Positions 3,679 through 49,490 of a stretch of DNA of 64,000 nt are shown here, piece after piece. Source of the stretch: a virus. The number at the start of each line of letters is the position of its first letter. Position 1 is the stretch's first letter. The translations under genes and the position numbers were made by a program. Below the pieces are notes generated by a model. The model was not told the DNA's origin and made no database searches. It saw only the letters and a program-made list of their open reading frames with translations. The DNA lies in IMG/VR virus record IMGVR_UViG_3300036886_000043, positions 33,231 through 97,230 of that record, one strand, 5' to 3'.

Positions 3679-4232
3679 TTCCAATTCCTTATTATCCGAA
3701 GTTCTATCGTGTTCCGCTCCGCTTGGCCGATGTCCCTACGGCTTGGGGTCCGAACGAGTCTATCCTCATGGATATGATTCAGCGGTTCGATATTCCCACA
3801 AACAGAGCCCTTGAGTTTGGGGTGGACTATGGGTATTCCGCGTCGGCGCTGGCAAACTACTTCGATGAAGTAATCGCTGTAGACCACTTCCAGGGAGATC
3901 CGCAGACCGGGGAACGGGACAACTTGTATGAGCAGGCTTTGAAGGCCCTTCAGAACTTTCCTAACATTCGTTTGGTCTGCCAAGACTATCGAGAGTTCAT
4001 TAAGGTCGATAAAGACGAATACGGACTTATCCATGTAGACATGTTCCACGATTACGAATGTACCTACGGTGCCGGCCGGTGGGCCGCAGATCATGCCAGG
4101 GTAGTGATCTTCCACGATACTGAAGGGTGGGTAGAAGTGAAGGACGCGGCAGGGAAGATTTCTGAGGAGACAGGGATGAAGTTCTACAACTACGCCGTGA
4201 ACTTTGGTCTCGGAATTCTAGTGAGGCAATAA
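3675..4232 (+). CDS. class I SAM-dependent methyltransferase (Methyltransf_24-like)
   Basis: LEFGVDYGYS; LIHVDMFHDY; VIFHD. Confidence 0.85.
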   Translation: MIPIPYYPKFYRVPLRLADVPTAWGPNESILMDMIQRFDIPTNRALEFGVDYGYSASALANYFDEVIAVDHFQGDPQTGERDNLYEQALKALQNFPNIRLVCQDYREFIKVDKDEYGLIHVDMFHDYECTYGAGRWAADHARVVIFHDTEGWVEVKDAAGKISEETGMKFYNYAVNFGLGILVRQ

Positions 4233-4750
4233 TGCACCCCTCGGCGCTGAAGAGCGGAAAGCAGTTTTTCGAGAAGTACGCCATCCGCGGCTCTATCGTG
4301 GAGATCGGAAGTTGCGTGGTCGGTGGGGGGAGCCTTCGGGATGTTTCTCCCGCCGGCTGTAAATATCTTGGCTTGGATATATGTGAAGGCCCTGGGGTAG
4401 ACGTGGCGATGCCAGACCCGTACAGCTTTCCTATTCTTGACGGCTGTGCGGATTGTGTGGTTTGCTCCTCGGTTTTTGAGCATGTTGAGTTCTTTTGGCT
4501 GACCTTCTTGGAAATGGTCAGGGTCGTTAAAGTCGGGGGATTGATCTACGCGAACGCCCCAAGTAACGGCATAGTTCACGGTTACCCTGTAGACTGTTGG
4601 AGGTTTTACCCTGATGCTGGACAGGCTTTGGCAAAATGGGCATTGAGGAGTGGTCTTCCGGTCGAAGTGGTGGAAACGTGGATAGGTCCGCCCGACGGGG
4701 CAGATTCCGCAAGGTGGGAAGACTGGGTGTGCGTGTGGAGGAAACTGTGA
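4232..4750 (+). CDS. SAM-dependent methyltransferase (type 11-like)
   Basis: IVEIGS; YLGLD; SSVFEHV; HGYPVDCWRF. Confidence 0.88.
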   Translation: MHPSALKSGKQFFEKYAIRGSIVEIGSCVVGGGSLRDVSPAGCKYLGLDICEGPGVDVAMPDPYSFPILDGCADCVVCSSVFEHVEFFWLTFLEMVRVVKVGGLIYANAPSNGIVHGYPVDCWRFYPDAGQALAKWALRSGLPVEVVETWIGPPDGADSARWEDWVCVWRKL

Positions 4751-8017: not shown

Positions 8018-11000
8018 ATGCCGGACGCTGTTTACAAAGAGTACCCTCTCATCTTCCAAAGCAAGGGAATCTTCGCCCGCCAGGTCGATGACCTTGTGGA
8101 CCCGCAAGGGCTTTTGAATGAGGATAATGTTGAGGAGTTGGCAGAAGGCGCTTATGCTCAAAAATTGGGCAGTGTCCTCGTAAACGCCCAGGGGACCATC
8201 GGCCAGCCGGTCTACCCGTTATCGGGGAAAGTGGTCAGCCTATCCAAATTAGGCCAGTTGGCGGGGGCATACGCAAGATATGCGGTTACGGCAGACGGGG
8301 CTCTCTGGCGCAGATCGTTGCTTTCGGCGGGGCAGTTCACAAAGATTTCTACATCCTTCAGCGGGAGCCCTTGCTCGATTCAGTCTTACTGCAACACGGA
8401 TTTTACCTCAGTATCGACGGAATTTTTTGCAGACGCCGCAGGGATGTTCAAGGACGACGGAACCTTTGCGGCTCCACAGCAGATGGGCATCTTCCAGCCC
8501 CAGTTTCCAGTGCAGGCGCAGGCGCAGCCGCCCTCATCCGTGATACTTGACAACTATGTGACCTCGGCGGGGAGCTATTCATACACCGGGATCTCTGGAG
8601 GAACCAACGCAGGATACGTGAATACGACGATCCCTGCTGGAGTTCCCGCCGCAGGGCTTCAATCGGTAACGGTGGTCGATCCTACGCAGCCGGGCCTATT
8701 CCAGCTTTTGACTGTTGACTCAGGCGGAAATGCGGAGACGGTCCTTGTCCTCTTAGTGACTCCCACGGGGTTTGTGGCGAACTTCACAAAGATTCACTCA
8801 AGTGGAGTCACGGTCACGAGCGCAGACCTCTCGGTTTCGGTTCCTGCAAGCACTACGGCAACAATAAGTGCCTCATTCGGCATCCTTCCATGTGGGGCTA
8901 AACCGATACTTGTGAACTGGCCCGTTACAAACCAGCCACTACAGCAAGCGGACTACCTTGGCTTGTATCTTTTTGTCAGTGATCCAACCCAGATACAGAG
9001 CATCACGCTCAAGCTCGATTGCGGGGATGGTTCATTCGATAGTGATTATTTCTACAAGGTCATTGCTCAAGGTCCACTCCAAAATTTGGTATCTTCGGCA
9101 ACCTCTTCAACAGACCCAACAACTGCATTGACGGACGCGCTCCTGTCAGACAGCCTCAATCTCTACGGCAACCAAGCCGGAGGGATCGGTGAACTGAATA
9201 CCGGGCTCGACAACTGGACACCGCTCCTCTTTCAACTCTCCGACTTTGCCGGCTCAGGCCGTGCGGACTTCAACGATCCGGTCTACAACTGGGCCAACGT
9301 CAACGGCTACCAGATTCAGATTGTCACCAACGACAACACGAGCGTGACGGTCAATCTTGCGGCCCTGGTGCTCTTTGGCGGAGCCGGTCCAGATACGCTC
9401 GGAGGCGTAGCTTACGACTACGTGTGGACGTTTTTCAATCCGGTGGATGGAACAGAGTCAAACCCGTCAATGATTGTGACGAACCAGAACCCGCCGAATC
9501 AGACGAACCGGGTCTATCCGCGGCGCCAGCCGGTGTTGTTGAACATGGACGTTACCACTTACGGACCATTAGGGCAGTTGCAAGACGGTCAGATCGGGTA
9601 TCTGAGAATCTACAGGCGAGGTGGAACACTCGGGGACAACTTCCGAAGGGTAGATCAAATTCCGGTCAACATAGCGGCCGGGGGAATCGTCCAGTACATC
9701 GACACAGCGCCGGACTACCTAGTAGCCGGAGCAGATATTGTCTCGTTTACCAACGATGTTCCGGTCCCGAGCCTACTCCCGGTCCCGGTCAACACGACAT
9801 TGATGACTCCGATCTATACAGAAAATCAGGTGACGAACGTCTTCCCTGTGTCGATGGCAAACATCTCTGTGCGCCAGCAGGTAACAATCGGAAGTCCTAC
9901 TGCAATAGCAAACAACTTTGAAACCGTAATTGTTCTAACCCTCGACGAAGCAAGTTTTACTGCGTTTGTGCAAAACGCTCATGCGGCTGGAGAGCCGGTA
10001 CAGGCAAGCTATCAGGTAGGCCAGCCGGTTTATGGAATGGTCATAGCCTTCAACAAGGCATGGTATTGGGGAGATCCGAATAACCCGTCTACCCTCTACT
10101 TCAGCACCGGAAATGCTCCGCAGTACGTGGGAGAGGCGAACAACGTCATTGTCTCCACCCCGGACGACTACATCACAACAGTTAAGCCTTACAAGGGAAA
10201 CATCTTCGTCAGTTGCGTCAAAAGCGGGTGGTGGATGATTCCTCCGGGCTCTCCTGCCAGCCAGCCGCCGTATCCTACGGCCTGCGTACATGGCTGCGTG
10301 GCTCCGTTCGGGGCCGTGGCGACAGAGGAAATGATTCTCTATCAGGCGGCGGACGGAATACGCGCTTTCGCTGGAGGGGCATCGGAGTATATGAGTCTCC
10401 CGATTGAATTCATTTTTCAAGGCGTGGGTTCTACTCCGATTGTCGAAGCGGATCAAACGAAGTTGTCTCAGACGGTGGCCGCGTATTGGAACTCGATGGT
10501 ATTTTTCAGCTACATCGGGACGGATGGGAACCGGCATCGAGTGATTGCCCACGCTCAATACAAGAGGTTCAGGAATGACGACGTGGACGCTCAATGCCTC
10601 TTGCTTGAGGCCGACACGAATCAGTTGCTCTATGGAGACTCAAACGGACTGGTTCACATCGACCGTCAGAACCTTCCCTATGACCAGGTAAACAGCGGCG
10701 GTGTGCTGGCCGCGGGACCGATTGCGATCAATTTGCAAACAGCCTATAGCTTCCAAGGAAGCCCCGCGAACCAGAAACAGTATCAGGCCGTTCAGATCGA
10801 CTGCAACACAGGGGGCCAAACGCTCAACGTCAACCTTCTCTTCAATGATGGAGAGATCACAGTCGCGCTCGGAACGATCAGCAATGCACAGCGCGGCAAG
10901 ATCAATCTGCCAGTGAACTTAGGGTTGGGCCAACAGGCGTATAAGATTTCGCTTCAGATCACCGGCAACGTGTCTGCCTTCGCGTACCTCTATCAAGCCG

Positions 11001-11359
11001 CAGTTGAGGCTCTGGTGCTGCCGAGGACGCGGAAAACCGTAGATACCTACGACCTGAATTGCGGATTTGCAGACTCGAAATACTGCAAGGATTTTTGGGC
11101 ACAGTACACGGCTACGGCTCCGATCAACGTGCAAGTGTATTATGACGACAACGCAACCCCAGGGTTCACTTTCACGATGCCTCAAGCCGGAGGCGTCAGG
11201 AACCCTCTTAGGGTAAGATTACCGGCAGTCTCATTCAGGACGATCCGCGTGGTAGCGGAATCGACAGGGGACTTTCTCTGGTGGCCCGATACCTGTCTTT
11301 GGGTCAAGCCCCAGTGCGCTTCGAGGGGCTATGAGAAGGTGTTGATTGTTGAGAACTAA
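8018..11359 (+). CDS. large virion protein, probably tail nozzle / packaged-DNA stabilisation type
   Basis: 1113 aa, beta-rich, propeller-like motifs (PSTLYFS, GCVAPFG, LLYGDSNG); lies upstream of GNAT and ejection genes as in podoviruses. Confidence 0.6.
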   Translation: MPDAVYKEYPLIFQSKGIFARQVDDLVDPQGLLNEDNVEELAEGAYAQKLGSVLVNAQGTIGQPVYPLSGKVVSLSKLGQLAGAYARYAVTADGALWRRSLLSAGQFTKISTSFSGSPCSIQSYCNTDFTSVSTEFFADAAGMFKDDGTFAAPQQMGIFQPQFPVQAQAQPPSSVILDNYVTSAGSYSYTGISGGTNAGYVNTTIPAGVPAAGLQSVTVVDPTQPGLFQLLTVDSGGNAETVLVLLVTPTGFVANFTKIHSSGVTVTSADLSVSVPASTTATISASFGILPCGAKPILVNWPVTNQPLQQADYLGLYLFVSDPTQIQSITLKLDCGDGSFDSDYFYKVIAQGPLQNLVSSATSSTDPTTALTDALLSDSLNLYGNQAGGIGELNTGLDNWTPLLFQLSDFAGSGRADFNDPVYNWANVNGYQIQIVTNDNTSVTVNLAALVLFGGAGPDTLGGVAYDYVWTFFNPVDGTESNPSMIVTNQNPPNQTNRVYPRRQPVLLNMDVTTYGPLGQLQDGQIGYLRIYRRGGTLGDNFRRVDQIPVNIAAGGIVQYIDTAPDYLVAGADIVSFTNDVPVPSLLPVPVNTTLMTPIYTENQVTNVFPVSMANISVRQQVTIGSPTAIANNFETVIVLTLDEASFTAFVQNAHAAGEPVQASYQVGQPVYGMVIAFNKAWYWGDPNNPSTLYFSTGNAPQYVGEANNVIVSTPDDYITTVKPYKGNIFVSCVKSGWWMIPPGSPASQPPYPTACVHGCVAPFGAVATEEMILYQAADGIRAFAGGASEYMSLPIEFIFQGVGSTPIVEADQTKLSQTVAAYWNSMVFFSYIGTDGNRHRVIAHAQYKRFRNDDVDAQCLLLEADTNQLLYGDSNGLVHIDRQNLPYDQVNSGGVLAAGPIAINLQTAYSFQGSPANQKQYQAVQIDCNTGGQTLNVNLLFNDGEITVALGTISNAQRGKINLPVNLGLGQQAYKISLQITGNVSAFAYLYQAAVEALVLPRTRKTVDTYDLNCGFADSKYCKDFWAQYTATAPINVQVYYDDNATPGFTFTMPQAGGVRNPLRVRLPAVSFRTIRVVAESTGDFLWWPDTCLWVKPQCASRGYEKVLIVEN

Positions 11360-11385
11360 GGTGTATGCTGTATCTGAGGTGATTT

Positions 11386-11553
11386 ATGCTCAACATCATT
11401 TTGGTAATTCTGATGTTTCTGTGCGGATTTGGCGGATATGCGATCCCAGTTACGCAGCCGGCCGGTTTCCGGTATGGCGTCGGTCTTCTCGGCGCTGTGC
11501 TTTTTATCTTGTTTTGCCTCATCAACCTTGGCCTGATTCACCCAGGGCTATAA
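11386..11553 (+). CDS. small two-helix membrane protein
   Basis: MLNIILVILMFLCGFGG...LLGAVLFILFCLINLGLIHPGL; GAGGTG RBS. Confidence 0.7.
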   Translation: MLNIILVILMFLCGFGGYAIPVTQPAGFRYGVGLLGAVLFILFCLINLGLIHPGL

Positions 11554-11556
11554 GCG

Positions 11557-11721
11557 ATGATTATCTTGCTCATCATTGTTCTAGTTCTGCTCTTTGGCGG
11601 CGGCTTCGGTTACTACGGCCACACTCAATGGGGCGCGAATAACGTCTATGCAGGGCCGGGAATCGGCCTTGGAACCATCCTGATTATCCTGCTGATTCTG
11701 TTCCTGCTCGGCGTCATTTGA
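11557..11721 (+). CDS. DUF3309-like small membrane protein
   Basis: MIILLIIVLVLLFGGGFGYYGHTQWG...GIGLGTILIILLILFLLGVI. Confidence 0.75.
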   Translation: MIILLIIVLVLLFGGGFGYYGHTQWGANNVYAGPGIGLGTILIILLILFLLGVI

Positions 11722-11816
11722 GTCGTGTCCGCATGTGCATGTAGGACAGTGTTTAGTCGTTCCCGCTCTGTGGAAATCTCTCCGGTTGTCGAGAAGGGGT
11801 TACTATTCAGGTAGCC

Positions 11817-11845
11817 TTGACGCAAATCATTTTCCGTGCGATGAT
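11817..11845 (+). promoter_or_regulatory. promoter P1 of tRNA block 1
   Basis: TTGACG-17 nt-(TG)GATGAT, 6 nt before the leader ATG (leaderless). Confidence 0.7.
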
Positions 11846-11851
11846 TTTGAT

Positions 11852-11923
11852 ATGAGATTTGACCGCAACAGTTTATGCCTCTCCTATTCACTCCTGTCGA
11901 GTGACGGGGAGGCTGCGGTCTGA
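11852..11923 (+). CDS. attenuator leader peptide 1 MRFDRNSLCLSYSLLSSDGEAAV
   Basis: 11 consecutive S/L/C/Y codons matching the downstream tRNAs; lies between promoter and terminator. Confidence 0.85.
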   Translation: MRFDRNSLCLSYSLLSSDGEAAV

Positions 11924-11950
11924 TTCCAAAGTTTGGAATTTCAGCGAAGC

Positions 11951-11974
11951 GGCCTCCAGAAATGGAGGCTTTTT
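11951..11974 (+). terminator. attenuator 1 intrinsic terminator
   Basis: GGCCTCCA-GAAA-TGGAGGC-TTTTT. Confidence 0.9.
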
Positions 11975-11979
11975 GTTGT

Positions 11980-12063
11980 GCGGGATTGGCGAAACGGCAG
12001 CCGCGCCCGATTTAAGATCGGGTGTCTTAGGACGTGGGAGTTCAAGTCTCCCATCCCGCACCA
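11980..12063 (+). tRNA. trnL: tRNA-Leu(TAA)
   Basis: GCGGGAT/ATCCCGC; CCCGA-TTTAAGA-TCGGG; long variable arm; CCA. Confidence 0.95.
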
Positions 12064-12064
12064 T

Positions 12065-12141
12065 GTATCGGAAGGTAAAGTTTTGGAACCAGTGGTCCGC
12101 AAAACCACTTTTAGCCGGTGGGACTCCGGCCCGGTACTCCA
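12065..12141 (+). tRNA. trnC: tRNA-Cys(GCA), atypical
   Basis: GTATCGG/CCGGTAC, U73, GTGGT-CCGCAAA-ACCAC; T-loop TGGGACT; C33. Confidence 0.8.
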
Positions 12142-12153
12142 AAGTTTAGTAGT

Positions 12154-12232
12154 GCTCGCGTAGCCCAATTTGGCAGGAGGCACTTCATTCAAAACGAAGA
12201 CAGTGCTGGTTCAAATCCAGCCGCGAGTACCA
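12154..12232 (+). tRNA. trnL: tRNA-Leu(CAA), short variable loop
   Basis: GCTCGCG/CGCGAGT; loop TTCAAAA; variable region ACAGT. Confidence 0.9.
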
Positions 12233-12240
12233 AAATATGT

Positions 12241-12319
12241 GCCCCGTTAGCCCAATTGGCAGGAGGCGTCTGACTTAGGATCAGAACAGTGATGAGTTCG
12301 AATCTCTCACGGGGTACCA
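12241..12319 (+). tRNA. trnL: tRNA-Leu(TAG), short variable loop
   Basis: GCCCCGT/ACGGGGT; TCTGA-CTTAGGA-TCAGA; variable region ACAGT. Confidence 0.92.
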
Positions 12320-12328
12320 AAATTTAGA

Positions 12329-12357
12329 TTGCAACGGGTACCAATCTACTGTAAAAT
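12329..12357 (+). promoter_or_regulatory. promoter of the inserted endonuclease gene
   Basis: TTGCAA-17 nt-TAAAAT, 6 nt before ATG 12364. Confidence 0.75.
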
Positions 12358-12363
12358 ATTGGT

Positions 12364-12963
12364 ATGAATGGTGATTCGAGTATTTGCAATGGATGTGGTT
12401 TAAGTGAGCCAGAAGTGAGATTTCGATTGCGGAAGGCGAACGGGAAAACTTACAGAAAACACTTGTGTACAAAATGTGATGATGAATATCAAAAGAAGTA
12501 CACTAAACCTCAAGGCGTAAAAGATAGGAATAGAAAATCGTATCTGAAAAGAAAGGAGAGAAGAGCACGGGGAGAAATAGTCGAGATTTTCCTTCTTGAG
12601 GACTGTCGAAGAATTGACAGAAAAAAAGGTATCAAATCCGATTTAGACTCTGAATATATTGCGGAGATAATAAAGGATGGATGCGCGTATTGCGGAGATA
12701 TAGAATCACGCATTGGGCTTGATCGGATAGATAATTCACTGGGCCACATGAAGGGAAATGTTAACGCCTGTTGTATGAGATGTAATCTTATTCGTAGGGA
12801 TATGCCATACGAAGCATGGCTGATTGTAGCGCCCACGATGAAGATTGCGAGAGAATCAAAAGCGTTTGGGAATTGGAATGTGCTTTTTGGAAACAAGAAG
12901 AAAACGGAGCGCGGGCCGGACGATAAGGCAACGGGTTGCTACCCCGCACAGCCGCAAGGCTGA
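12364..12963 (+). CDS. HNH/His-Me-type homing endonuclease
   Basis: CxxC pairs; CAYCG...GLDRIDNSLGHMKGNVNACCMRCN; AT-rich insertion between tRNA genes. Confidence 0.85.
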   Translation: MNGDSSICNGCGLSEPEVRFRLRKANGKTYRKHLCTKCDDEYQKKYTKPQGVKDRNRKSYLKRKERRARGEIVEIFLLEDCRRIDRKKGIKSDLDSEYIAEIIKDGCAYCGDIESRIGLDRIDNSLGHMKGNVNACCMRCNLIRRDMPYEAWLIVAPTMKIARESKAFGNWNVLFGNKKKTERGPDDKATGCYPAQPQG

Positions 12964-12991
12964 CTGAGTTTGACTCTCAGGCGCTCCGCCA
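12906..12991 (+). tRNA. trnS: tRNA-Ser(GCT)
   Basis: GGAGCGC/GCGCTCC, G73, loop TTGCTAC, variable arm CAGCC-GCAA-GGCTG. Confidence 0.88.
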
Positions 12992-12995
12992 GTTC

Positions 12996-13080
12996 GGAAG
13001 GTACCGCTGAAAGGTCGGCAAACGGTCCTGAAAACCGTGGCTCCTTCGGGATGGGCGTTCGATTCGTCTACCTTCCGCCA
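12996..13080 (+). tRNA. trnS: tRNA-Ser(TGA)
   Basis: GGAAGGT(A)/(T)ACCTTCC; ACGGT-CCTGAAA-ACCGT; variable arm; C33. Confidence 0.9.
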
Positions 13081-13085
13081 AGTTT

Positions 13086-13172
13086 GGGAGTGATGCTCTG
13101 TAGGGAGAGCAGCAGGCCGTAACCCTGCCGTCACTTGTGGCATAGGGGGTTCGATTCCCTCCACTCCCACCA
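13086..13172 (+). tRNA. trnY: tRNA-Tyr(GTA)
   Basis: GGGAGTG/CACTCCC; GCAGG-CCGTAAC-CCTGC; variable arm; C33. Confidence 0.9.
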
Positions 13173-13175
13173 TAC

Positions 13176-13204
13176 TTGTCAACACGGAAGAGTAGTGGTA
13201 TACT
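13176..13204 (+). promoter_or_regulatory. internal promoter without leader peptide, upstream of the initiator tRNA
   Basis: TTGTCA-17 nt-(TG)TATACT. Confidence 0.8.
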
Positions 13205-13209
13205 GAAAT

Positions 13210-13284
13210 CGCGGGTTGGTAGCGCAGCGTCATACGTCAGGCTCATACCCTGAAGATCCGGTGCAAATCCGGTACCCGCAACCA
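13210..13284 (+). tRNA. trnfM: tRNA-fMet(CAT), initiator type
   Basis: C1.A72 mismatch (CGCGGGT/ACCCGCA); TCAGG-CTCATAC-CCTGA. Confidence 0.85.
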
Positions 13285-13285
13285 A

Positions 13286-13361
13286 GGTCACGTCGTCTAA
13301 CTGGAAGGATACTTCCCTGTCTAGGAAGCTGGCGCGGGTTCGATTCCCGTCGTGATCGCCA
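13286..13361 (+). tRNA. trnD: tRNA-Asp(GTC)
   Basis: GGTCACG/CGTGATC, G73; CTTCC-CTGTCTA-GGAAG. Confidence 0.93.
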
Positions 13362-13367
13362 AGTTTA

Positions 13368-13446
13368 GCCGATGCACTCTGTACTGGATTCGGAGCACTC
13401 CCCTTCAAGGAGTTGGATGCGAGTTCGATTCTCGTCGTCGGCGCCA
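13368..13446 (+). tRNA. trnE: tRNA-Glu(TTC)
   Basis: GCCGATG/CGTCGGC; ACTCC-CCTTCAA-GGAGT; C33. Confidence 0.88.
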
Positions 13447-13454
13447 AGTTTTAC

Positions 13455-13531
13455 GGGGTCACCGTCTAATTGGTCTGGACGCCAGATTCTCAATCTGGAA
13501 ACTGTGAGTTCGATCCTCACTGGCCCTACCA
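13455..13531 (+). tRNA. trnE: tRNA-Glu(CTC)
   Basis: GGGGTCA/TGGCCCT; CCAGA-TTCTCAA-TCTGG. Confidence 0.93.
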
Positions 13532-13540
13532 GAAAATGAT

Positions 13541-13569
13541 TTGACAGAAATTGCGAACGGCGGTACAGT
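13541..13569 (+). promoter_or_regulatory. promoter P2 of tRNA block 2
   Basis: TTGACA-17 nt-TACAGT. Confidence 0.85.
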
Positions 13570-13579
13570 AGAAAACGAG

Positions 13580-13648
13580 ATGAAAAACCGAGTCAATCAC
13601 GGATTTACACCAGCGACGGCGCAACCGACGCAGGGTAATCCTATGTAG
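13580..13648 (+). CDS. attenuator leader peptide 2 MKNRVNHGFTPATAQPTQGNPM
   Basis: contains a cognate codon for all 12 block-2 tRNAs; lies between promoter and terminator. Confidence 0.88.
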   Translation: MKNRVNHGFTPATAQPTQGNPM

Positions 13649-13674
13649 CGGCTCGTGGAGTTTGAAGCAAAGCG

Positions 13675-13705
13675 CCCACCGAGCCAATCAGCCGGTGGGT
13701 TTTTT
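13675..13705 (+). terminator. attenuator 2 intrinsic terminator
   Basis: CCCACCG...CGGTGGG-TTTTTT. Confidence 0.88.
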
Positions 13706-13713
13706 GTTGATGT

Positions 13714-13789
13714 TCCAGCGTAGCAAAAAGGTAATGCGCCGCACTGTTAATGCGGAAATGTGCAGGTTCGAGTCCTGCCGCTGGAGCCA
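13714..13789 (+). tRNA. trnN: tRNA-Asn(GTT)
   Basis: TCCAGCG/CGCTGGA; CCGCA-CTGTTAA-TGCGG. Confidence 0.95.
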
Positions 13790-13798
13790 GTTTGAAGT

Positions 13799-13873
13799 TG
13801 CCCGTTCGTTCATGTGGCAGGACGGCTGACTCTGGATCAGCGGAGCGAGGTTCAAGTCCTCGACGGGCAGCCA
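13799..13873 (+). tRNA. trnQ: tRNA-Gln(CTG)
   Basis: TGCCCGT/ACGGGCA; GCTGA-CTCTGGA-TCAGC. Confidence 0.95.
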
Positions 13874-13881
13874 AGTTTTAC

Positions 13882-13957
13882 AGGGAGATGGCCGAGCGGC
13901 TTAGGCGACAGCCTTTGGAACTGTCTCAGGTAGGTTCGACTCCTACTCTCCCTGCCA
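13882..13957 (+). tRNA. trnQ: tRNA-Gln(TTG)
   Basis: AGGGAGA/TCTCCCT; loop CTTTGGA. Confidence 0.93.
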
Positions 13958-13958
13958 T

Positions 13959-14034
13959 GCGGACGTAGCTCAATTGGTAGAGCACAGCGTTGCCAATGCT
14001 GAGGTTGCCGGATCGTTGCCGGTCGTTCGCTCCA
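13959..14034 (+). tRNA. trnG: tRNA-Gly(GCC)
   Basis: GCGGACG/CGTTCGC, U73; loop TTGCCAA; T-loop ATCGTTG. Confidence 0.93.
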
Positions 14035-14119
14035 AATTTTGGAGGTTGACATGCCGCACAGGTATCATTTCAATGCCGATCTCCGAGAAGTGTACAGAAG
14101 GCTGGCGGGACAATTTCGA

Positions 14120-14194
14120 GCACCGTTAGTTGAGTCGGCACAACACGACACTCGTAACGTCGAGGCTCCGGTTCGAGGCCGGGACGGTGCTCCA
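14120..14194 (+). tRNA. trnT: tRNA-Thr(CGT)
   Basis: GCACCGT/ACGGTGC; loop CTCGTAA. Confidence 0.9.
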
Positions 14195-14208
14195 GAATTG
14201 GAAGGTGA

Positions 14209-14748
14209 GTGATGAATTTGATGCGGAAGCCGGTATTGCAGTTGAATGCAAGCTACGAGCCGCTTCGCATCATCGCGGCAAGAAGGGCATTGACGCTCAT
14301 AACCAAGGGCGTAGCCGTGGTGGAAGTGCCAACCAGCACAGTAGTCTATCCTGGCATCTACTTGCCCTCAGTGATTCGGTTGCGGACTTACCGGCATGTG
14401 CCTATTAGGATGCAGGTGATGAGCCGCAAGAACATTCTCCTTCGGGATGGCGGCCGCTGCATGTATTGCGGACAGAGGTCAAACGAATTGACGCTTGACC
14501 ATGTGATTCCGCGTTCCCGTGGCGGATTGAATACGTGGGACAATCTTGTGGCTTGCTGCAAACGCGACAATCACAAGAAGAACGACAGGACTCCAGAGGA
14601 AGCGGGAATGAACTTGATTCACAGGCCGCTTCCGCAAACGATCCACACGCCGCGGTTTGTTCTACGGTCTATGGGTTTGGAAGTAAATGAGTGGAGCCCG
14701 TACTTGTGGGCCGACTCCGAAGGCGACAAGAAGTATGCGTTTAACTGA
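14209..14748 (+). CDS. HNH endonuclease (McrA/HNH_5-like)
   Basis: VLQLNASYEPL...LPSVIRL...RDGGRCMYCG...TLDHVIPRSRGG...WDNLVACCKRDNHKK. Confidence 0.93.
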   Translation: MMNLMRKPVLQLNASYEPLRIIAARRALTLITKGVAVVEVPTSTVVYPGIYLPSVIRLRTYRHVPIRMQVMSRKNILLRDGGRCMYCGQRSNELTLDHVIPRSRGGLNTWDNLVACCKRDNHKKNDRTPEEAGMNLIHRPLPQTIHTPRFVLRSMGLEVNEWSPYLWADSEGDKKYAFN

Positions 14749-14820
14749 GCCGGGTGAACATCGAATGTTGCGGGCGCTTGTATCGCTTGCTAGTGGGTTC
14801 GACTCCCACATCCGGCCCCA
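14749..14820 (+). tRNA. trnT: tRNA-Thr(TGT), compact fold
   Basis: GCCGGGT/ATCCGGC; D arm AACA-TCGAA-TGTT; 6-7-bp anticodon stem, loop CTTGTAT. Confidence 0.82.
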
Positions 14821-14830
14821 ACAAGTTCAT

Positions 14831-14905
14831 GGGGAATATCGTTCAGCGATAGGACGCTAAGTTGTGGCCTTAGTCACCGCAGTTTGATTCTGCGTATTCC
14901 CCCCA
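14831..14905 (+). tRNA. trnH: tRNA-His(GTG)
   Basis: G-1:C73; CTAAG-TTGTGGC-CTTAG. Confidence 0.92.
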
Positions 14906-14918
14906 AGTTTTAAGTAGT

Positions 14919-14993
14919 GGGCGTGTGGTGCTAATGGGAACACATCCGGCCTGCACCCGGAAGTTGAGAGTTCGATTCTCTCCATGTCCACCA
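14919..14993 (+). tRNA. trnA: tRNA-Ala(TGC)
   Basis: G3:U70; TCCGG-CCTGCAC-CCGGA; C33. Confidence 0.93.
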
Positions 14994-14999
14994 AGTTTT

Positions 15000-15075
15000 G
15001 CCGACTTAGCTGATGAGGTCATAGCGGTCGCCTGAAGAGCGATAGAAGCCCGCTCGATACGGGCAGTCGGCACCA
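15000..15075 (+). tRNA. trnF: tRNA-Phe(GAA)
   Basis: GCCGACT/AGTCGGC; loop CTGAAGA. Confidence 0.92.
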
Positions 15076-15076
15076 T

Positions 15077-15154
15077 CGGTGTGTAGCGTAGTCTGCTTAA
15101 CGCGCTCCGTTCGGGACGGAGAGATCGCAGGTCGAAATCCTGCCACGCCGACCA
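15077..15154 (+). tRNA. trnP: tRNA-Pro(CGG)
   Basis: CGGTGTG/CACGCCG; CTCCG-TTCGGGA-CGGAG. Confidence 0.93.
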
Positions 15155-15160
15155 GTTTAC

Positions 15161-15234
15161 CGGGGTGTAGTGTAAAGGAAACATCCGTGGCCTGGGACCA
15201 CGTGTTGGGCTTTCGAGATGCCCCACCCCGACCA
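15161..15234 (+). tRNA. trnP: tRNA-Pro(TGG)
   Basis: CGGGGTG/CACCCCG; CGTGG-CCTGGGA-CCACG; C33. Confidence 0.88.
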
Positions 15235-15240
15235 ATTTAC

Positions 15241-15315
15241 GGCCCGTTCGTTCAATGGACAGGACTTCGGATTACGAATCCGACAATCAGAGTTCGACTC
15301 TCTGGCGGGCTACCA
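15241..15315 (+). tRNA. trnR: tRNA-Arg(ACG)
   Basis: GGCCCGT/GCGGGCT; TCGGA-TTACGAA-TCCGA; A20. Confidence 0.95.
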
Positions 15316-15316
15316 C

Positions 15317-15345
15317 TTGCAAGAAAAGAAAAGTTGATGTACAGT
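15317..15345 (+). promoter_or_regulatory. promoter P3 of tRNA block 3
   Basis: TTGCAA-17 nt-TACAGT, 7 nt before the leader ATG. Confidence 0.82.
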
Positions 15346-15352
15346 GGAATTC

Positions 15353-15421
15353 ATGCAGATCAGGACCAAACACGGAATAACCAGAATGACCAAGCGGGTC
15401 ATTTGGGGGATCGTGTGTTGA
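15353..15421 (+). CDS. attenuator leader peptide 3 MQIRTKHGITRMTKRVIWGIVC
   Basis: contains a cognate codon for all 12 block-3 tRNAs; lies between promoter and terminator. Confidence 0.9.
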   Translation: MQIRTKHGITRMTKRVIWGIVC

Positions 15422-15447
15422 GGGTCTGAGCATTTTGGTACGCACAG

Positions 15448-15472
15448 ACCTTCGCTCAGGCGAGGGTTTTTT
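15448..15472 (+). terminator. attenuator 3 intrinsic terminator
   Basis: ACCTTCGC-TCAG-GCGAGGG-TTTTTT. Confidence 0.9.
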
Positions 15473-15488
15473 ATTGCTCTTTGAAAAT

Positions 15489-15563
15489 AGGGGAGTGCTG
15501 GCGGCACAGCGGTTGGTCTCCAAAACCAACGTCACGGCGGTTCGAGTCCGCTCTCCCCTGCCA
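15489..15563 (+). tRNA. trnW: tRNA-Trp(CCA), compact fold
   Basis: AGGGGAG/CTCCCCT, G73; GTTGGT-CTCCAAA-ACCAAC. Confidence 0.9.
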
Positions 15564-15568
15564 TTTTT

Positions 15569-15637
15569 GGCACGTACCCAAGGCGGGAAGCGATCCTCAT
15601 AAGATCGTAAACTGGTTCGAGTCCAGGCGTGCTACCA
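15569..15637 (+). tRNA. trnM: tRNA with CAT anticodon (probably elongator Met), 69 nt
   Basis: GGCACGT/GCGTGCT; GCGATC-CTCATAA-GATCGT; minimal D arm. Confidence 0.8.
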
Positions 15638-15642
15638 GTTTT

Positions 15643-15736
15643 GGGCGATAGCACCGGCCGTGCGGCGGAGTCTTATAAACTCTGGAGAGCGCCAGATTAG
15701 CGCAACGGGAAGGATCGACACCTTCATCGCCTACCA
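15643..15736 (+). tRNA. trnI: tRNA-Ile(TAT) with long variable arm
   Basis: GGGCGAT/ATCGCCT; CGGAGT-CTTATAA-ACTCTG; GCGC-CAGATTA-GCGC arm. Confidence 0.8.
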
Positions 15737-15739
15737 TGT

Positions 15740-15814
15740 GGGTCGCAGATGTTTTTGGCGGCATACCCGGCTCTTACCCGGAATGGCGGGGTTCGACTCC
15801 CCGGCGACCCACCA
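15740..15814 (+). tRNA. trnK: tRNA-Lys(CTT)
   Basis: GGGTCGC/GCGACCC; CCGG-CTCTTAC-CCGG. Confidence 0.9.
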
Positions 15815-15823
15815 TCTGTTTTC

Positions 15824-15897
15824 GGACTGCGAGTGTGATGGTGCATAACGCCCTTTTAAGGCGTTTGGATAGAGTTCGATTCTCTAGCGGTCCACCA
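15824..15897 (+). tRNA. trnK: tRNA-Lys(TTT)
   Basis: GGACTGC/GCGGTCC; ACGCC-CTTTTAA-GGCGT. Confidence 0.9.
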
Positions 15898-15898
15898 T

Positions 15899-15973
15899 GG
15901 CCCTATAGCTCAAGGGGATAGAGTGCGGTCTTCTAAGCCGTCGATCACCGTTCGACTCGGTGTAGGGCTCCCA
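15899..15973 (+). tRNA. trnR: tRNA-Arg(TCT)
   Basis: GGCCCTA/TAGGGCT; loop CTTCTAA; A20. Confidence 0.92.
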
Positions 15974-15978
15974 GTTTT

Positions 15979-16055
15979 GCCGCTGTATCTCTCCGGTTTC
16001 CTAAACCGGCAAGAGTAGTTGGATGACGCCGGTTCGACTCCGGCCAGCGGCCCCA
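15979..16055 (+). tRNA. trnR: tRNA-Arg(CCT) with no 5' D arm (rearranged core)
   Basis: GCCGCTG/CAGCGGC; CCGGT-TTCCTAA-ACCGG; perfect T arm; CCA. Confidence 0.8.
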
Positions 16056-16060
16056 GGTTT

Positions 16061-16138
16061 GCTGCCGTATTCGGTTCTGGTTCCGAACCAGAGGGCCGTA
16101 GATGGAGAAGGCAGGTTCGAGTCCTGTCGGCAGCGCCA
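16061..16138 (+). tRNA. trnR: tRNA-Arg(CCG) with no 5' D arm (rearranged core)
   Basis: GCTGCCG/CGGCAGC; TCTGG-TTCCGAA-CCAGA; canonical T arm; CCA. Confidence 0.8.
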
Positions 16139-16143
16139 GTTTA

Positions 16144-16219
16144 GCCGGGTTCGCCCAAAGGCTTAGGGCCGATGGTCTACACCCATCTGATAGGGGTTCG
16201 AGTCCTCTACCCGGCACCA
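16144..16219 (+). tRNA. trnV: tRNA-Val(TAC)
   Basis: GCCGGGT/ACCCGGC; GATGG-TCTACAC-CCATC; C33. Confidence 0.92.
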
Positions 16220-16224
16220 AGATT

Positions 16225-16298
16225 GTCGATGTAGCTCAGTGGTAGAGCACCGCAATGGTAATGCGGCGACGAGGGTCCGATTCCCTCCTTCGGCTCCA
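16225..16298 (+). tRNA. trnT: tRNA-Thr(GGT)
   Basis: TAGCTCAGTGGTAGAGC D arm; CCGCA-ATGGTAA-TGCGG. Confidence 0.92.
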
Positions 16299-16302
16299 TT
16301 TT

Positions 16303-16377
16303 GCCGATGTAGCTCAATGGCAGAGCATTCGCTTGATAAGCGAAAGGTCAGTGGATCAGTACCACTCATCGGCACCA
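16303..16377 (+). tRNA. trnI: tRNA-Ile(GAT)
   Basis: GCCGATG/CATCGGC; TTCGC-TTGATAA-GCGAA. Confidence 0.93.
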
Positions 16378-16383
16378 AGTTGA

Positions 16384-16458
16384 GCGGGATTAGCCAAGTG
16401 GAAAGGCAATGGGCTTCCAACCCATTATGCGTCGGTTCAACCCCGACATCCCGCTCCA
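16384..16458 (+). tRNA. trnG: tRNA-Gly(TCC)
   Basis: GCGGGAT/ATCCCGC, U73; ATGGG-CTTCCAA-CCCAT. Confidence 0.94.
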
Positions 16459-16489
16459 CTTTTCTGCCAACAAGCGTTATACTACTTTC

Positions 16490-17425
16490 ATGCCGAAGTC
16501 GCCCAAACTCGGAAAGATTACATTCTCCTCTTTGTCTCTTCCAGAGCAAATCCAGATGAGCAACTTGCAGGATGCCGTGAACATCCTCGGCGGTCATTCG
16601 GGGGAAGTCGAGTTAAGCAATCATCTAAACCTCGGCGGGAACAAAATAACGAACGTGGCGGCGCCGGCCGCGGATAGCGATGTGTTGACGAGCGGAGCGG
16701 CAGAAACAAAGTATTCCGCGGCGGCTTTACGTCCGCAGCTTGAGTCGAGCGGGACGCATCCATTCGTAGGCTACAGACAAGTCAATAATCAAGGACAGCG
16801 CGAAAAAACCTCAAGCTGGCTCAACGAGCTTCTCTCTACCCCTCCGAACTCCAACAACATCAATCCCATCGTCAGTTCTTCGGGAGGCTCAACGAGCGTC
16901 ACGATCCCGGCCAGCATCTTGCAGATGGGGGATGGAACCACGCGATACCTTCCTTCGCGGACGGACACGTTGACCAACCCGGCAAGCTACTCCATTACCT
17001 CGTTTACGATTGCTTTGGGAGTGGCAACGGTGGTTTTGTCCTCGACTCCATCGCCGGCTTTGGCTGCGCCTACGGTGGTGTACATTTCAGGGACGAGTGA
17101 GATTGACGGGACGTTCCCGATTGCAAGCATTGTCAGCCCGACGACGTTCACGATCAACGTAAGCAGTGGGGTGTCTGGCACTGGAGGGACGGTAGAGACG
17201 GGAGGAATCTGCTACTATTACCTCAACAAGTCATTCCAGAAGGTGATGCTATCCGTCCTTCCGTCATCTTCAGACACCCCGTTTAGGCGTCTCGGAATTT
17301 CTGGAGACGGATACCAGTTGCTTGCGGTTGTCAGCATCAATTCGAGCGGAACTGTCCAAGTGGGGACGGCCGGAGGGGGAACGCCGAGCGTCGTTAGCAC
17401 AGCCAATGCAGGAAGCAGGTTCTAA
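16490..17425 (+). CDS. probable virion/tail-associated protein
   Basis: LNLGGNKITNVAAP fibre-like motif, S/T/G-rich; true start probably ATG 16490, 6 nt after TATACT. Confidence 0.6.
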   Translation: MPKSPKLGKITFSSLSLPEQIQMSNLQDAVNILGGHSGEVELSNHLNLGGNKITNVAAPAADSDVLTSGAAETKYSAAALRPQLESSGTHPFVGYRQVNNQGQREKTSSWLNELLSTPPNSNNINPIVSSSGGSTSVTIPASILQMGDGTTRYLPSRTDTLTNPASYSITSFTIALGVATVVLSSTPSPALAAPTVVYISGTSEIDGTFPIASIVSPTTFTINVSSGVSGTGGTVETGGICYYYLNKSFQKVMLSVLPSSSDTPFRRLGISGDGYQLLAVVSINSSGTVQVGTAGGGTPSVVSTANAGSRF

Positions 17426-17630: not shown

Positions 17631-18275
17631 ATGGAAACGAAAATTCTCGAAGCGGTTGAAACGAGTAAGATGTCAGTTTGTTCACCAGTCAAAGTATGGA
17701 AGTTCCCAGAACCGGGAAAGAACTACATCTTGTCGGCAGACCCCTGCTTGGGGACTGAAACAGATAGCTCCAATGCCGCAATCGAAGTAATTGATGCGGA
17801 GACTGGGGAACAGTGTGCAGAGTTTGCTCAGGTGGTGTCTCCTGAAAACCTAGCACCGATAATCTTCGATTTGGCGAAGAGATACAATAATGCGGAAGTG
17901 GCGGTAGAGGTAAACAGTGTCGGCATGTTGACGAACAAACTCCTGATTCACAAGTTTAATTACGAAAACATCTACCGCTTCAAACGGCTTGATCGCCTTC
18001 AAAATACCATGACGGACATCGTTGGATGGTGGACCGATTACAAGTCTAAGGCGCAAATGGAAGCCATATTCAGGGATTTTTTGGGGAATAATATAGGATT
18101 GATCCACAGTAAAAAATTGCTAAATGAGATTCTTTTCTACAACGAAGATAGTCCTAAACCGAATGATCGGTTTGCAGCCATGATGATTGCTCTGGCCGTT
18201 CGGGACGAGTTACTGAAGTCTAGGGCTTCTATTCTGAAGGCAGAAGAGAAGATGAGGAATAGGGGAGTGGATTGA
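17631..18275 (+). CDS. stand-alone terminase large-subunit nuclease-like domain
   Basis: YILSADPCLG, GEQCAEF, LAKRYNNAEVAVEVN, GWWT, NDRFAAMMIAL; no ATPase domain. Confidence 0.75.
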   Translation: METKILEAVETSKMSVCSPVKVWKFPEPGKNYILSADPCLGTETDSSNAAIEVIDAETGEQCAEFAQVVSPENLAPIIFDLAKRYNNAEVAVEVNSVGMLTNKLLIHKFNYENIYRFKRLDRLQNTMTDIVGWWTDYKSKAQMEAIFRDFLGNNIGLIHSKKLLNEILFYNEDSPKPNDRFAAMMIALAVRDELLKSRASILKAEEKMRNRGVD

Positions 18276-18476
18276 CGAACTGGAAGCGATCTGCCGAGCA
18301 GATGGATTGGAGCTTCCGACAATGTACGTGGCGTGGAATCCACGTTGCCCAGTCCACGGCTTTCCTGAAGGTTCCGAGGAATATCAGAACGCTGCAATCT
18401 TGTCTGAAACTAAGGTAATGGAGACGAAGTGGTATCAGCGTTGGCGTGACCTGATGGCAAAGGAAATGGAAGCCCA

Positions 18477-18731
18477 ATGAAAATCATCGTCAAAGACGTG
18501 AAGGTTCATCCGGTAACCGGCTACATGGAAGTGGACGTGGTGGCCGTGAACGATAAGGGCGTGGAGGGTCCGAAGAAGACGTATGGAACGGACGCTCATC
18601 AACTTCAATCGGCATACAGTGGGGACATTAACTTGTGGCTGGCATCGGTGAAGGGGACTCACGAACAGCACCATGGGCACCACGAGGTTTTGGCCGCGCA
18701 GTTGTTGGGGATGAAAGGGAAGGAACTATGA
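18477..18731 (+). CDS. hypothetical protein
   Basis: 84-aa ORF in the + strand gene run. Confidence 0.55.
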   Translation: MKIIVKDVKVHPVTGYMEVDVVAVNDKGVEGPKKTYGTDAHQLQSAYSGDINLWLASVKGTHEQHHGHHEVLAAQLLGMKGKEL

Positions 18732-18948
18732 AGAAGTTTAGAGGCAAGCCGAATCCAACACGAACAAATAGGGCATTTGAGGCTTTAGCTAAAAACTTCT
18801 ACACGGACACTCCAATGTGGAGGTTTGTTGCGAGGGGTGGTAGGGGGCGTAGGTTGATGATCTTGTATCGGCGGCTGAAGGGGAGTCGGAGGCCGCAGTG
18901 CTTTCGGCAGGATGTTTGGTGATTCCAAAATTTGGAATGGAGGGTGAT

Positions 18949-19419
18949 ATGGGATTGATTTTCAAAGACGAAGTAACGTCATCGGAGCCGCTGGATATGC
19001 CTCCTGTCAATCGACGGATTGCAAAGAACTCCGTTACAGGCGAGGACTACATCCCTGGATATGTGATTGGCCGCGGCGTAAATGTTGGCACAGAAACCTG
19101 TATTTACAGTCTTGAACAAGTGGACGGTCAGCCGCCAATGACCGCGGCGCAGAAAGCATTCGGAGTTCTTTGGTATGGGGATCTAAAACCAGACCTCATA
19201 CTTTCTTCTGAGGTATACATGAAGAAGATGGTCCGCCGCATAATTCCGAATCAGCGCAAGGCGGGGATGTACGGCTGTAATTTTGGCTTCTTTCTTAACG
19301 GGGCAATATGGTCCTATAGCGAAGAGGTTGATTGCAGTGAAGGATGGGTGTTTATTTTGAACACGAAATACCCGACAGCACCGCATCTCAATGGGTGCTA
19401 TAAGGCGATGGAGGAGTGA
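18949..19419 (+). CDS. hypothetical protein
   Basis: GGAGGGTG RBS; stop overlaps the next start. Confidence 0.6.
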   Translation: MGLIFKDEVTSSEPLDMPPVNRRIAKNSVTGEDYIPGYVIGRGVNVGTETCIYSLEQVDGQPPMTAAQKAFGVLWYGDLKPDLILSSEVYMKKMVRRIIPNQRKAGMYGCNFGFFLNGAIWSYSEEVDCSEGWVFILNTKYPTAPHLNGCYKAMEE

Positions 19420-20027
19420 TGGACGGCTGGAAGTACATGACGAAGAATGCAGCGGTGGTTCCGTTCTCCCCCGGAACCGTGGTCTATCAAGATGGGATGC
19501 TCTCGACGCTTTACTACCGCAGCAAGGAACTTGGGCGTCTGGAGTATATGTTCTGTGGCGACAAGCCAGGTCATGACCAGTTCATCCGAATGTTCGACGA
19601 GTCCAAAAGGATTACTCAGATACTTTGCGAGGTTGAGAATCAGGGCACACCGCAGGAGGTTTGTCATCCGGCTGGATGTTCTTGGGTTGAGCTTTCAAAG
19701 GGCGTCGATGGCGAGAGAGCCGCAATGTGCGGGTTTGCGTTTATCAAGCGAAGCCGCTACATGGTTGATTTGGGGATGCTTGGAATTGCATATTGGATGG
19801 AGGGGCTGAAGATCGACGTTCTTCATGGCGTTTTGCTTGAGGAGAACAAGGCGGCGCAACACTTTGCTGAAAGGCTCGGGTTCAAAAAAGAAGGCGTAGT
19901 CCGACGTTTTCACTCCTACCGAGGCAAGTTGGTTTCTGCGGTTGCCATGATGATTGAGAAGGAATTTTTCCTCCCCGGATACGAAGAATGGTATGAATCG
20001 AAGAAAGTTGTAGAAACTGTAGAGTGA
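19416..20027 (+). CDS. GNAT (RimJ/RimL-like) acetyltransferase-fold protein
   Basis: ENKAAQHFAERLGFKKEGVVR; sits just before the ejection genes. Confidence 0.8.
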   Translation: MMDGWKYMTKNAAVVPFSPGTVVYQDGMLSTLYYRSKELGRLEYMFCGDKPGHDQFIRMFDESKRITQILCEVENQGTPQEVCHPAGCSWVELSKGVDGERAAMCGFAFIKRSRYMVDLGMLGIAYWMEGLKIDVLHGVLLEENKAAQHFAERLGFKKEGVVRRFHSYRGKLVSAVAMMIEKEFFLPGYEEWYESKKVVETVE

Positions 20028-49479: not shown

Positions 49480-49490
49480 GAGGGACAAGT

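Follow-up and report, generated by a model that had tools for sequence, protein, structure and literature searches.

Introduction

In the enterobacteria, leader-peptide transcription attenuators are found at the amino-acid operons trp, his, leu and pheA and, in multivalent form, at thr and ilvGMEDA. T-box riboswitches, which are marked by a stem I carrying a specifier loop and by a conserved T-box sequence, bind one uncharged tRNA directly, without a ribosome, and control synthetase or amino-acid genes. For arrays of tRNA genes, the closest described case is the trn operon of Anabaena PCC 7120, a cyanobacterial L-array that is silent until translation is impaired (PMC8421152). [quoted passage not shown] Phage-encoded tRNAs have been described as a means of countering tRNA-targeting immunity (PMC12409363). 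Full-text literature searches returned no description of attenuator-controlled tRNA arrays or of demand-sensing transcription of phage tRNAs, and attenuator control of tRNA genes appears to be an unpublished design.

Here we describe an analysis of a 64,000-nucleotide stretch of viral DNA (the window; bases 33231-97230 of one 97,230-bp IMG/VR virus record), in which three blocks of tRNA genes are each preceded by a short, putatively regulatory unit. As judged from its sequence, the last of these, unit 3, is probably a ribosome-mediated (trp-type) transcription attenuator controlling a 12-gene phage tRNA operon, a reading to which we assign a probability of roughly 80%.

Results

The tRNA array and its surroundings

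The long open reading frames (ORFs) of the window lie on the plus strand throughout, among them RecT, DnaB and glycosyltransferases as well as very large ORFs of structural type; plus-strand ORFs of 3810 and 2069 amino acids occupy positions 22685-34117 and 49443-55652. DNA of the window is contained in peat and permafrost metagenomes. Searching GenBank phages with blastn gave matches at the level of tRNAs only, and exact DNA patterns taken from leader 3 and from an odd tRNA-Arg gene matched just one IMG/VR contig.

The tRNA array spans 11980-16458. ARAGORN at default settings detected 28 tRNA genes in it, to which Ser(GCT), Ser(TGA), Met(CAT), Thr(TGT), Arg(CCT) and Arg(CCG) were added on the basis of relaxed settings, weak Rfam matches and a simple structural scan, the scan being used because ARAGORN at low thresholds was too noisy for the odd tRNAs. 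One more gene, Cys(GCA) at about 12064-12149, was assigned solely by visual inspection. Block 3 lies on the plus strand at 15489-16458 and comprises Trp(CCA), Met(CAT), Ile(TAT), Lys(CTT), Lys(TTT) and Arg(TCT) in its first half and Arg(CCT), Arg(CCG), Val(TAC), Thr(GGT), Ile(GAT) and Gly(TCC) in its second. Ten of these 12 genes were recovered by ARAGORN, and the other two, Arg(CCT) at 15979-16052 and Arg(CCG) at 16061-16135, by weak Rfam matches together with the structural scan; both have complete acceptor (7/7), anticodon (5/5) and T (5/5) stems. The block of 12 tRNAs that had been proposed at the outset, with the two unusual Arg genes included, was confirmed.

These two Arg tRNAs have only 7-8 nt between the acceptor and the anticodon stem, and so are without a D arm, and carry a long segment past the anticodon arm. 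A near-identical copy of the odd tRNA-Arg(CCT) is present in L005, one of the related loci described below. The tRNA-Ile(TAT) gene (15643-15736) is also unusual in being 94 nt long, with a long extra segment, and has the same form in L005, L024, L037 and L049.

An HNH endonuclease gene is located inside block 2 at 14212-14745 (and also at 12364-12963). It has more than 7000 homologues at E values below 1e-20, many of them on long contigs and one with the source name Candidatus Acidoferrales, and the gene serves as a marker of tRNA arrays on considerably more than 50 contigs of IMG/VR. The HNH gene of the window may be the counterpart of the one found in cyanobacterial L-arrays.

Organisation of the three units

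Unit 3 (plus strand) opens with a promoter-like site at 15317-15345, made up of a -35 hexamer TTGCAA (15317-15322), a 17-nt spacer and a -10 hexamer TACAGT (15340-15345). Its hexamers agree with the consensus at 8 of 12 positions, where the threshold of the scan tool is 9. Leader ORF 3 follows at 15353-15421, with an ATG, 21 sense codons and a TGA stop codon (15419-15421). The ATG stands 7 nt past the -10 hexamer, a position from which the mRNA is probably leaderless; since the ORF has no Shine-Dalgarno sequence, its translation would hinge on leaderless initiation.

The RNA of unit 3 can be divided into regions that are predicted to pair in mutually exclusive ways. Region 1 (15353-15367), the putative anti-antiterminator, pairs with 15420-15434 in the minimum-energy folds of untranslated RNA, both full-length and co-transcriptional. 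Region 2 (15419-15434), identified by folding and from homologues, is the 5' arm of the antiterminator and begins with the stop codon, while region 3 (15445-15455) serves both as the 3' arm of the antiterminator and as the 5' arm of the terminator. The antiterminator arms, 15419-15428 (G-rich) and 15445-15454, form 10 pairs, two of which are G-U. The intrinsic terminator detected by the scan tool (15446-15475) has a stem of 9-10 bp, the loop TCAG and a T-run, and its hairpin (15446-15469) has a folding energy of -13.6 kcal/mol. The coordinates and counts given in the original prediction for 15317-15472 all hold. Only about 15 nt separate the T-run from the start of tRNA-Trp at 15489, which leaves no room for a second promoter before block 3. 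From this gap and the order of promoter, ORF, terminator and tRNA genes, it follows that block 3 would be expressible only via readthrough of the unit 3 terminator.

A 7-bp hairpin internal to the ORF (AATGACC/GGTCATT, 15385-15403, plus strand) could possibly act as an RNA polymerase pause hairpin, and its GACC...GGTC arms are found again in most homologues of the unit. Between the T-run and the first tRNA gene a motif, TCTTTGA(C/A)A, is present at 15478-15486, and it recurs at the equivalent place in L021, L024, L029, L039, L064, L072 and L083, several of which are unrelated arrays. The motif resembles a -35 box, for which the matching -10 would lie within the tRNA; across the whole window no enrichment of it was found.

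Units 1 and 2, both on the plus strand, have the same components. Unit 2 (13541-13712) consists of the hexamers TTGACA and TACAGT spaced by 17 nt, a leader ORF at 13580-13648, an antiterminator and a terminator, and lies ahead of block 2 (13714-15315), which contains 12 tRNA genes. Unit 1 (11817-11978), with TTGACG and GATGAT spaced by 17 nt, a leader ORF at 11852-11923 and a terminator at 11951-11970, forms 1:2, 2:3 and 3:4 helices and stands before the Leu/Cys/Ser/Tyr block. A palindrome, TTCCAAAGTTTGGAA, at 11925-11939 makes up the loop hairpin of the unit 1 antiterminator; it is found at the same place in L005 and L001, and in a variant form in L016. Further into block 1, a strong plain promoter (TTGTCA-17-TATACT, 10/12 consensus positions, 13176-13204) lies directly 5' of tRNA-Met(CAT) at 13210, behind which come the Asp, Glu and Glu genes. 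With neither a leader ORF nor a terminator, this Met-Asp-Glu-Glu group looks like a constitutive sub-block within block 1.

Each leader matches its own block in codon content

The codons of leader 3 are drawn for the most part from those read by the tRNAs of its own operon. With wobble pairing applied strictly, 17 of its 21 sense codons fit a block-3 tRNA (18 when GTC is counted), the unread ones being CAG, CAC, GTC and TGT, and all 12 tRNAs are sampled; the match first reported for this leader was thereby reproduced. Only two codons of leader 3 fit block 1 and only two fit block 2. Leader 2 matches block 2 with 16 of 21 codons and samples 12 of its 12 tRNAs, and leader 1 matches block 1 with 11 of 22 codons under strict and 14 of 22 under relaxed rules, so that the matrix of three leaders against three blocks is diagonal, each leader fitting its own block.

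Given the codon usage of the phage itself, the chance that a random codon belongs to the block-3 set is p = 0.28; the probability of at least 17 matches among 21 codons is then 7.5e-7, and that of 21 random codons sampling all 12 tRNAs is about 2.5e-6. When the approximately 194,000 windows of 21 codons in the six frames of the 97-kb genome were scanned, leader 3 scored highest of all for the block-3 set and alone sampled 12 of 12, and leader 2 was likewise the sole 12/12 site for block 2.

The codons ATA, AGA, AGG and CGG of leader 3 had been labelled as rare. This is correct for ATA and AGA, but AGG and CGG are among the most-used Arg codons of the phage, each accounting for about 21-22% of the Arg codons in its genes. 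The codon content of leader 3 gives indirect support to the odd tRNAs with TAT, CCT and CCG anticodons being functional.

Promoters and terminators are common between the tRNA clusters of phages, and unit 3 could in principle be ordinary punctuation of this sort, a promoter and a leaky terminator between two tRNA blocks that happen to enclose a chance ORF. The sub-threshold score of its promoter would agree with that. However, the terminator stands downstream of the promoter and not upstream of it, the codon match has a P of about 1e-6 and is a unique genome-wide maximum, and the unit is both conserved and co-varying across lineages, as detailed below. We therefore consider punctuation extremely unlikely.

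Predicted behaviour of the leader RNA during translation

The action of a stalled ribosome was modelled by masking a 30-nt footprint codon by codon and folding only the RNA made before the 3' arm of the terminator. With the ribosome at any of codons 2-18 of unit 3, the predicted antiterminator (-16 to -17 kcal/mol) retained 8-10 of the 10 bases of the terminator 5' arm; with the ribosome at codon 19 onward or at the stop, the antiterminator 5' arm was covered and the helix was lost. Footprint folds of units 1 and 2 gave the same behaviour with similar stall ranges. Eleven of the 12 block-3 tRNAs have a codon in the effective zone, Val being represented there by GTC (codon 16) only. The strict Val codon, GTG, is codon 21, too near the stop for a stall to free the antiterminator, so that Val would be sensed only if tRNA-Val(TAC) also reads GTC.

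For the untranslated leader, a fold giving a default-off state had been proposed, and this is plausible. Ribosome-free growing RNA first gives the long hairpin in which 15353-15367 pairs with 15420-15434, and this 1:2 helix has the lowest energy in RNA reaching no further than nt 15450 and once more in full-length RNA. In RNA ending at 15454-15464, however, the antiterminator is more stable by 5.5 kcal/mol, and the combination of long hairpin and terminator is favoured again only from 15469 on. Untranslated unit 3 is thus probably off in these models, subject to the kinetics of folding.

Homologues of unit 3 in related arrays

The 1113-amino-acid protein encoded next to the array, on its upstream side, had no relative in a genome-contig search, and led to two related loci, the viral contig L005 (88.6 kb) and the contig L016 (55.6 kb), in which the order of the array is as in the window and all three units are present. 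In L005 the interval between block 2 and unit 3 contains a gene for an RtcB-like ligase (18236-19414), and in L016 the same interval contains a Ro60/Rsr-like ORF flanked by weak Rfam matches to YrlA, a Y RNA-like family (17928-19665). These genes fit a context of tRNA damage, although they do not prove it.

Scanning IMG/VR by alignment with the block-2 HNH gene gave 80 loci, mostly tRNA arrays, and in ten of them a homologue of unit 3 was found, at 8540-8611 in L021, 11745-11813 in L023, 11094-11168 in L024, 9588-9662 in L029, 12272-12340 in L034, 7745-7816 in L035, 2715-2810 in L036, 7336-7410 in L037, 7374-7448 in L039 and 9131-9199 in L049; the counts given below for terminators and antiterminators refer to 11 homologues. 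All ten have a frame that is open from the ATG to a stop codon adjoining a GGGTCTG-type arm, with 21-30 sense codons and length changes that stay in frame. A -35 and -10 pair with a 17-nt spacer occurs at the homologous place, the -35 being the consensus TTGACA in L023 and L037. The ATG is either 6-10 nt past the -10 hexamer or preceded by a longer 5' untranslated region (UTR), and the longer UTRs usually carry an AGGA-, GGAGG-, GGAAGGA- or AGGTGGG-like sequence, mostly 7-9 nt before the ATG; in L039 the sole Shine-Dalgarno-like sequence is about 24 nt upstream.

The terminators of the homologues fold at -12.6 to -17.9 kcal/mol. At stem positions 2-4 from the loop, 3-4 types of Watson-Crick pair are seen across the 11 homologues, which is the signature of compensatory change; the pairs were tallied from folds of the individual sequences because MAFFT alignments of the switch region were out of register over loops of 4 and 5 nt. 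When the ORF's final segment is paired with the terminator 5' arm, the best duplex in 9 of the 11 has a helix starting no more than 3 nt from the first base of the stop codon. The best antiterminator duplexes range from -13.5 to -18.9 kcal/mol, and their complementarity exceeds that of shuffled G-rich arms by a modest 1.3-3.5 standard deviations.

Three other related arrays, in L047, L050 and L051, do not have the attenuator unit and would offer natural controls. The tRNA-Trp gene of L047 begins 8 nt after Arg(ACG). L050 and L051 have only a plain promoter, 5' of the array, and their Val, Thr, Ile and Gly genes are shifted to a place beside Leu(TAA).

Two further explanations bear on what the leader ORF is for. 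A stretch of residues in leader 3 is partly conserved in most homologues, as might be expected if the short ORFs encoded functional micro-peptides whose composition mirrored the tRNA blocks for some other reason. The conserved stretch, however, coincides with the site of RNA helices, and a peptide function would have no need of a paired terminator and antiterminator. Moreover, leaders 1 and 2 of the relatives retain their vocabulary of codons and amino acids but not the order of residues, which speaks for selection on the tRNAs used rather than on the peptide. We judge the micro-peptide explanation highly improbable.

Alternatively, the leader RNA might bind tRNAs itself by codon-anticodon pairing, in the manner of a T-box and independently of ribosomes, in which case the reading frame would be incidental. 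That the leader has one codon for almost every downstream anticodon would be in keeping with such binding. Nevertheless, an Rfam E-value search of 11000-17000 found no T-box, only tRNA, tRNA-like and other weak sub-threshold matches, and the leader matched no other Rfam family. The matching triplets also share a single frame from ATG to stop, and indels inside it are multiples of 3: peat contigs differ from the window by two different 3-nt insertions within ORF 3, while the indels after the stop codon are of 2 nt and 1 nt. The usual gain of Shine-Dalgarno-like sequences in relatives with a 5' UTR and the conserved position of the stop codon relative to the antiterminator also speak against direct binding, and sensing without a ribosome is in our view very unlikely. 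The in-frame indels and the Shine-Dalgarno-like sequences lend indirect support to translation of the leader.

Leader codons follow tRNA genes that have moved

The related arrays differ in where their Asp and Glu tRNA genes are placed. In L039, block 3 contains the two Glu genes and block 1 the Asp gene. Two of the codons in leader 3 of L039 are for Glu and none is for Asp, whereas in leader 1 two are for Asp and none is for Glu. L035 and L036 have both Asp and Glu genes in block 3, and their leaders 3 contain codons of both kinds (3 and 6 in total, respectively), while leader 1 of L035 has neither. Asp and Glu codons are absent from leader 3 of the window and of L021, L023, L024, L029, L034 and L049, and neither gene was found in block 3 of these arrays, the block being cut by the end of the locus in L023 and L034. 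There are two exceptions to this correspondence. Leader 3 of L037 has two Glu codons with no Glu gene in the block, and that of L029 has kept Thr (ACC, ACT) and ATA codons although block 3 yielded neither a Thr(GGT) nor an Ile(TAT) gene.

The same layout in unrelated arrays

AT-rich arrays with a quite different gene order (L064, L072-L085, L082) have the same layout as the units of the window. In L072 a leader at 4179-4286 samples all 15 of the downstream tRNAs, and a second one at 2558-2647, rich in Glu, Asp and Leu codons, precedes a Glu-Asp-Met-Leu block. Comparable sampling is seen in L083 (17 of 18 tRNAs of the block), L085 (16 of 16), L082 (8 of 8) and the leaders of L064 (11 of 12 and 10 of 10). 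For 38 units with distinct leader DNA, the summed z was 95.7, compared with 20.3 +/- 9.0 when leaders were paired with the blocks of other units, and none of 2000 permutations reached the observed value. The automatic unit finder overlooks some units and at times takes the wrong frame, for which reason the best candidate ORF was taken in the observed and the permuted data alike.

These comparisons also bear on what a leader-peptide attenuator at this site would report. In the trp and his attenuators an absent tRNA is indistinguishable from an uncharged one, and the leaders described here span many amino acids; the units might accordingly be genuine attenuators that register the general speed of translation or amino-acid starvation, not how abundant individual tRNAs are, and have nothing to do with host defence. 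A sensor of that kind, however, would need neither three leaders with non-overlapping, block-specific vocabularies nor codons that follow tRNA genes when these move, and the genes under control are for tRNAs and not for biosynthesis. A general starvation sensor therefore seems unlikely to us.

Discussion

The diagonal relation of leaders to blocks, the genome-wide maximum at leader 3, the footprint folds, conservation in 10 contigs, the tracking of Asp and Glu genes by their codons and the recurrence of the layout in unrelated arrays together support the original prediction that unit 3 is an attenuator. We infer that the leader ORF is translated and that stalling in it would lead to readthrough. 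In the scheme that we propose, transcription would begin at the leader ATG or immediately beside it, with a ribosome translating the 22-codon ORF close behind RNA polymerase. If decoding is prompt, the ribosome would reach the last codons or the stop and cover 15419-15434, allowing the terminator (15446-15469) to form and leaving the block silent. A shortage of any single tRNA among those sampled would make the ribosome stall between codons 2 and 18; candidate causes are a poor supply from the host, host shut-off, a defence nuclease that cleaves the tRNA, and missing charging. With region 1 occupied and region 2 free, the latter would then pair with the 5' arm of the terminator and permit readthrough into the 12 tRNA genes. 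The fresh tRNAs would relieve the stall and so close a negative feedback loop. The logic would be that of an OR gate, as a single slow codon in the effective zone could switch on all of the block. Units 1 and 2 would act in the same way on their own blocks.

A more far-reaching proposal is that the three attenuators form a tRNA-pool sensor, one per block, for on-demand counter-defence with feedback shut-off. According to this proposal, loss of one host isoacceptor would turn on only the matching phage block, and the loss could come from an anticodon nuclease, from another tRNA-targeting immune effector or from the phage's own shut-off of its host. The design would have arisen in unrelated lineages of phages or spread through them, and relatives would have joined it with RtcB or Ro60/Y-RNA repair modules. 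We offer this tentatively, giving it appreciably less than even odds; the link of unit 3 to anticodon nucleases, in particular, is a reasonable guess.

If unit 3 acts as an attenuator, classical attenuation would gain a new kind of target in the tRNA genes and would reach a new scale, with one leader sensing a dozen or more isoacceptors. It would also account for the way in which large phages hold costly tRNA arrays silent until the need for them arises. The leaders would allow one to deduce, from sequence alone, which tRNAs a phage expects to run short and which of its odd tRNA genes are used, they might be adapted as compact, programmable switches responding to tRNA shortage in synthetic biology, and they would open to direct testing the link that has been proposed between the tRNA arrays of phages and host immunity aimed at tRNAs.

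Among known systems, the T-box riboswitch resembles unit 3 in acting through a leader RNA with alternative terminator and antiterminator structures and in responding to the status of tRNA, but the element of unit 3 is an ORF. With the phage tRNAs that counter immunity the locus shares a large set of tRNAs that could replace cleaved host tRNAs, although studies of those treat the tRNAs themselves, whereas here the control of their transcription is at issue. The Anabaena L-array is an extra tRNA array with an embedded HNH gene, co-regulation with rtcB and hence a link to RNA repair, and induction by slowed translation; the phage array likewise has an HNH gene, and its relatives have RtcB or Ro60/Y-RNA genes within the array. 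Unlike the TrcR-controlled array, the phage array seems to be controlled in cis by a leader ORF and a terminator, and the core motif of the TrcR box, TGTAGTAT, searched for as the exact core, is absent from the window.

By analogy, the nearest mechanism is the multivalent leader-peptide attenuator of thr and ilvGMEDA. Like the enterobacterial attenuators, unit 3 has a promoter, a short leader ORF rich in regulatory codons and a terminator before the regulated genes, with 1:2, 2:3 and 3:4 helices that are predicted to be mutually exclusive, the role of the 1:2 helix being subject to the kinetics of folding, and a stop codon placed such that a ribosome finishing the leader would mask region 2. 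It differs from them in that its targets are tRNA genes and not biosynthetic enzymes, and in that its leader covers 12 isoacceptors for 8 amino acids, usually with one or two codons each, where the enterobacterial leaders have runs of codons for 1-3 amino acids. It differs, finally, in being phage-borne, probably leaderless, and used three times in one genome with differing vocabularies.
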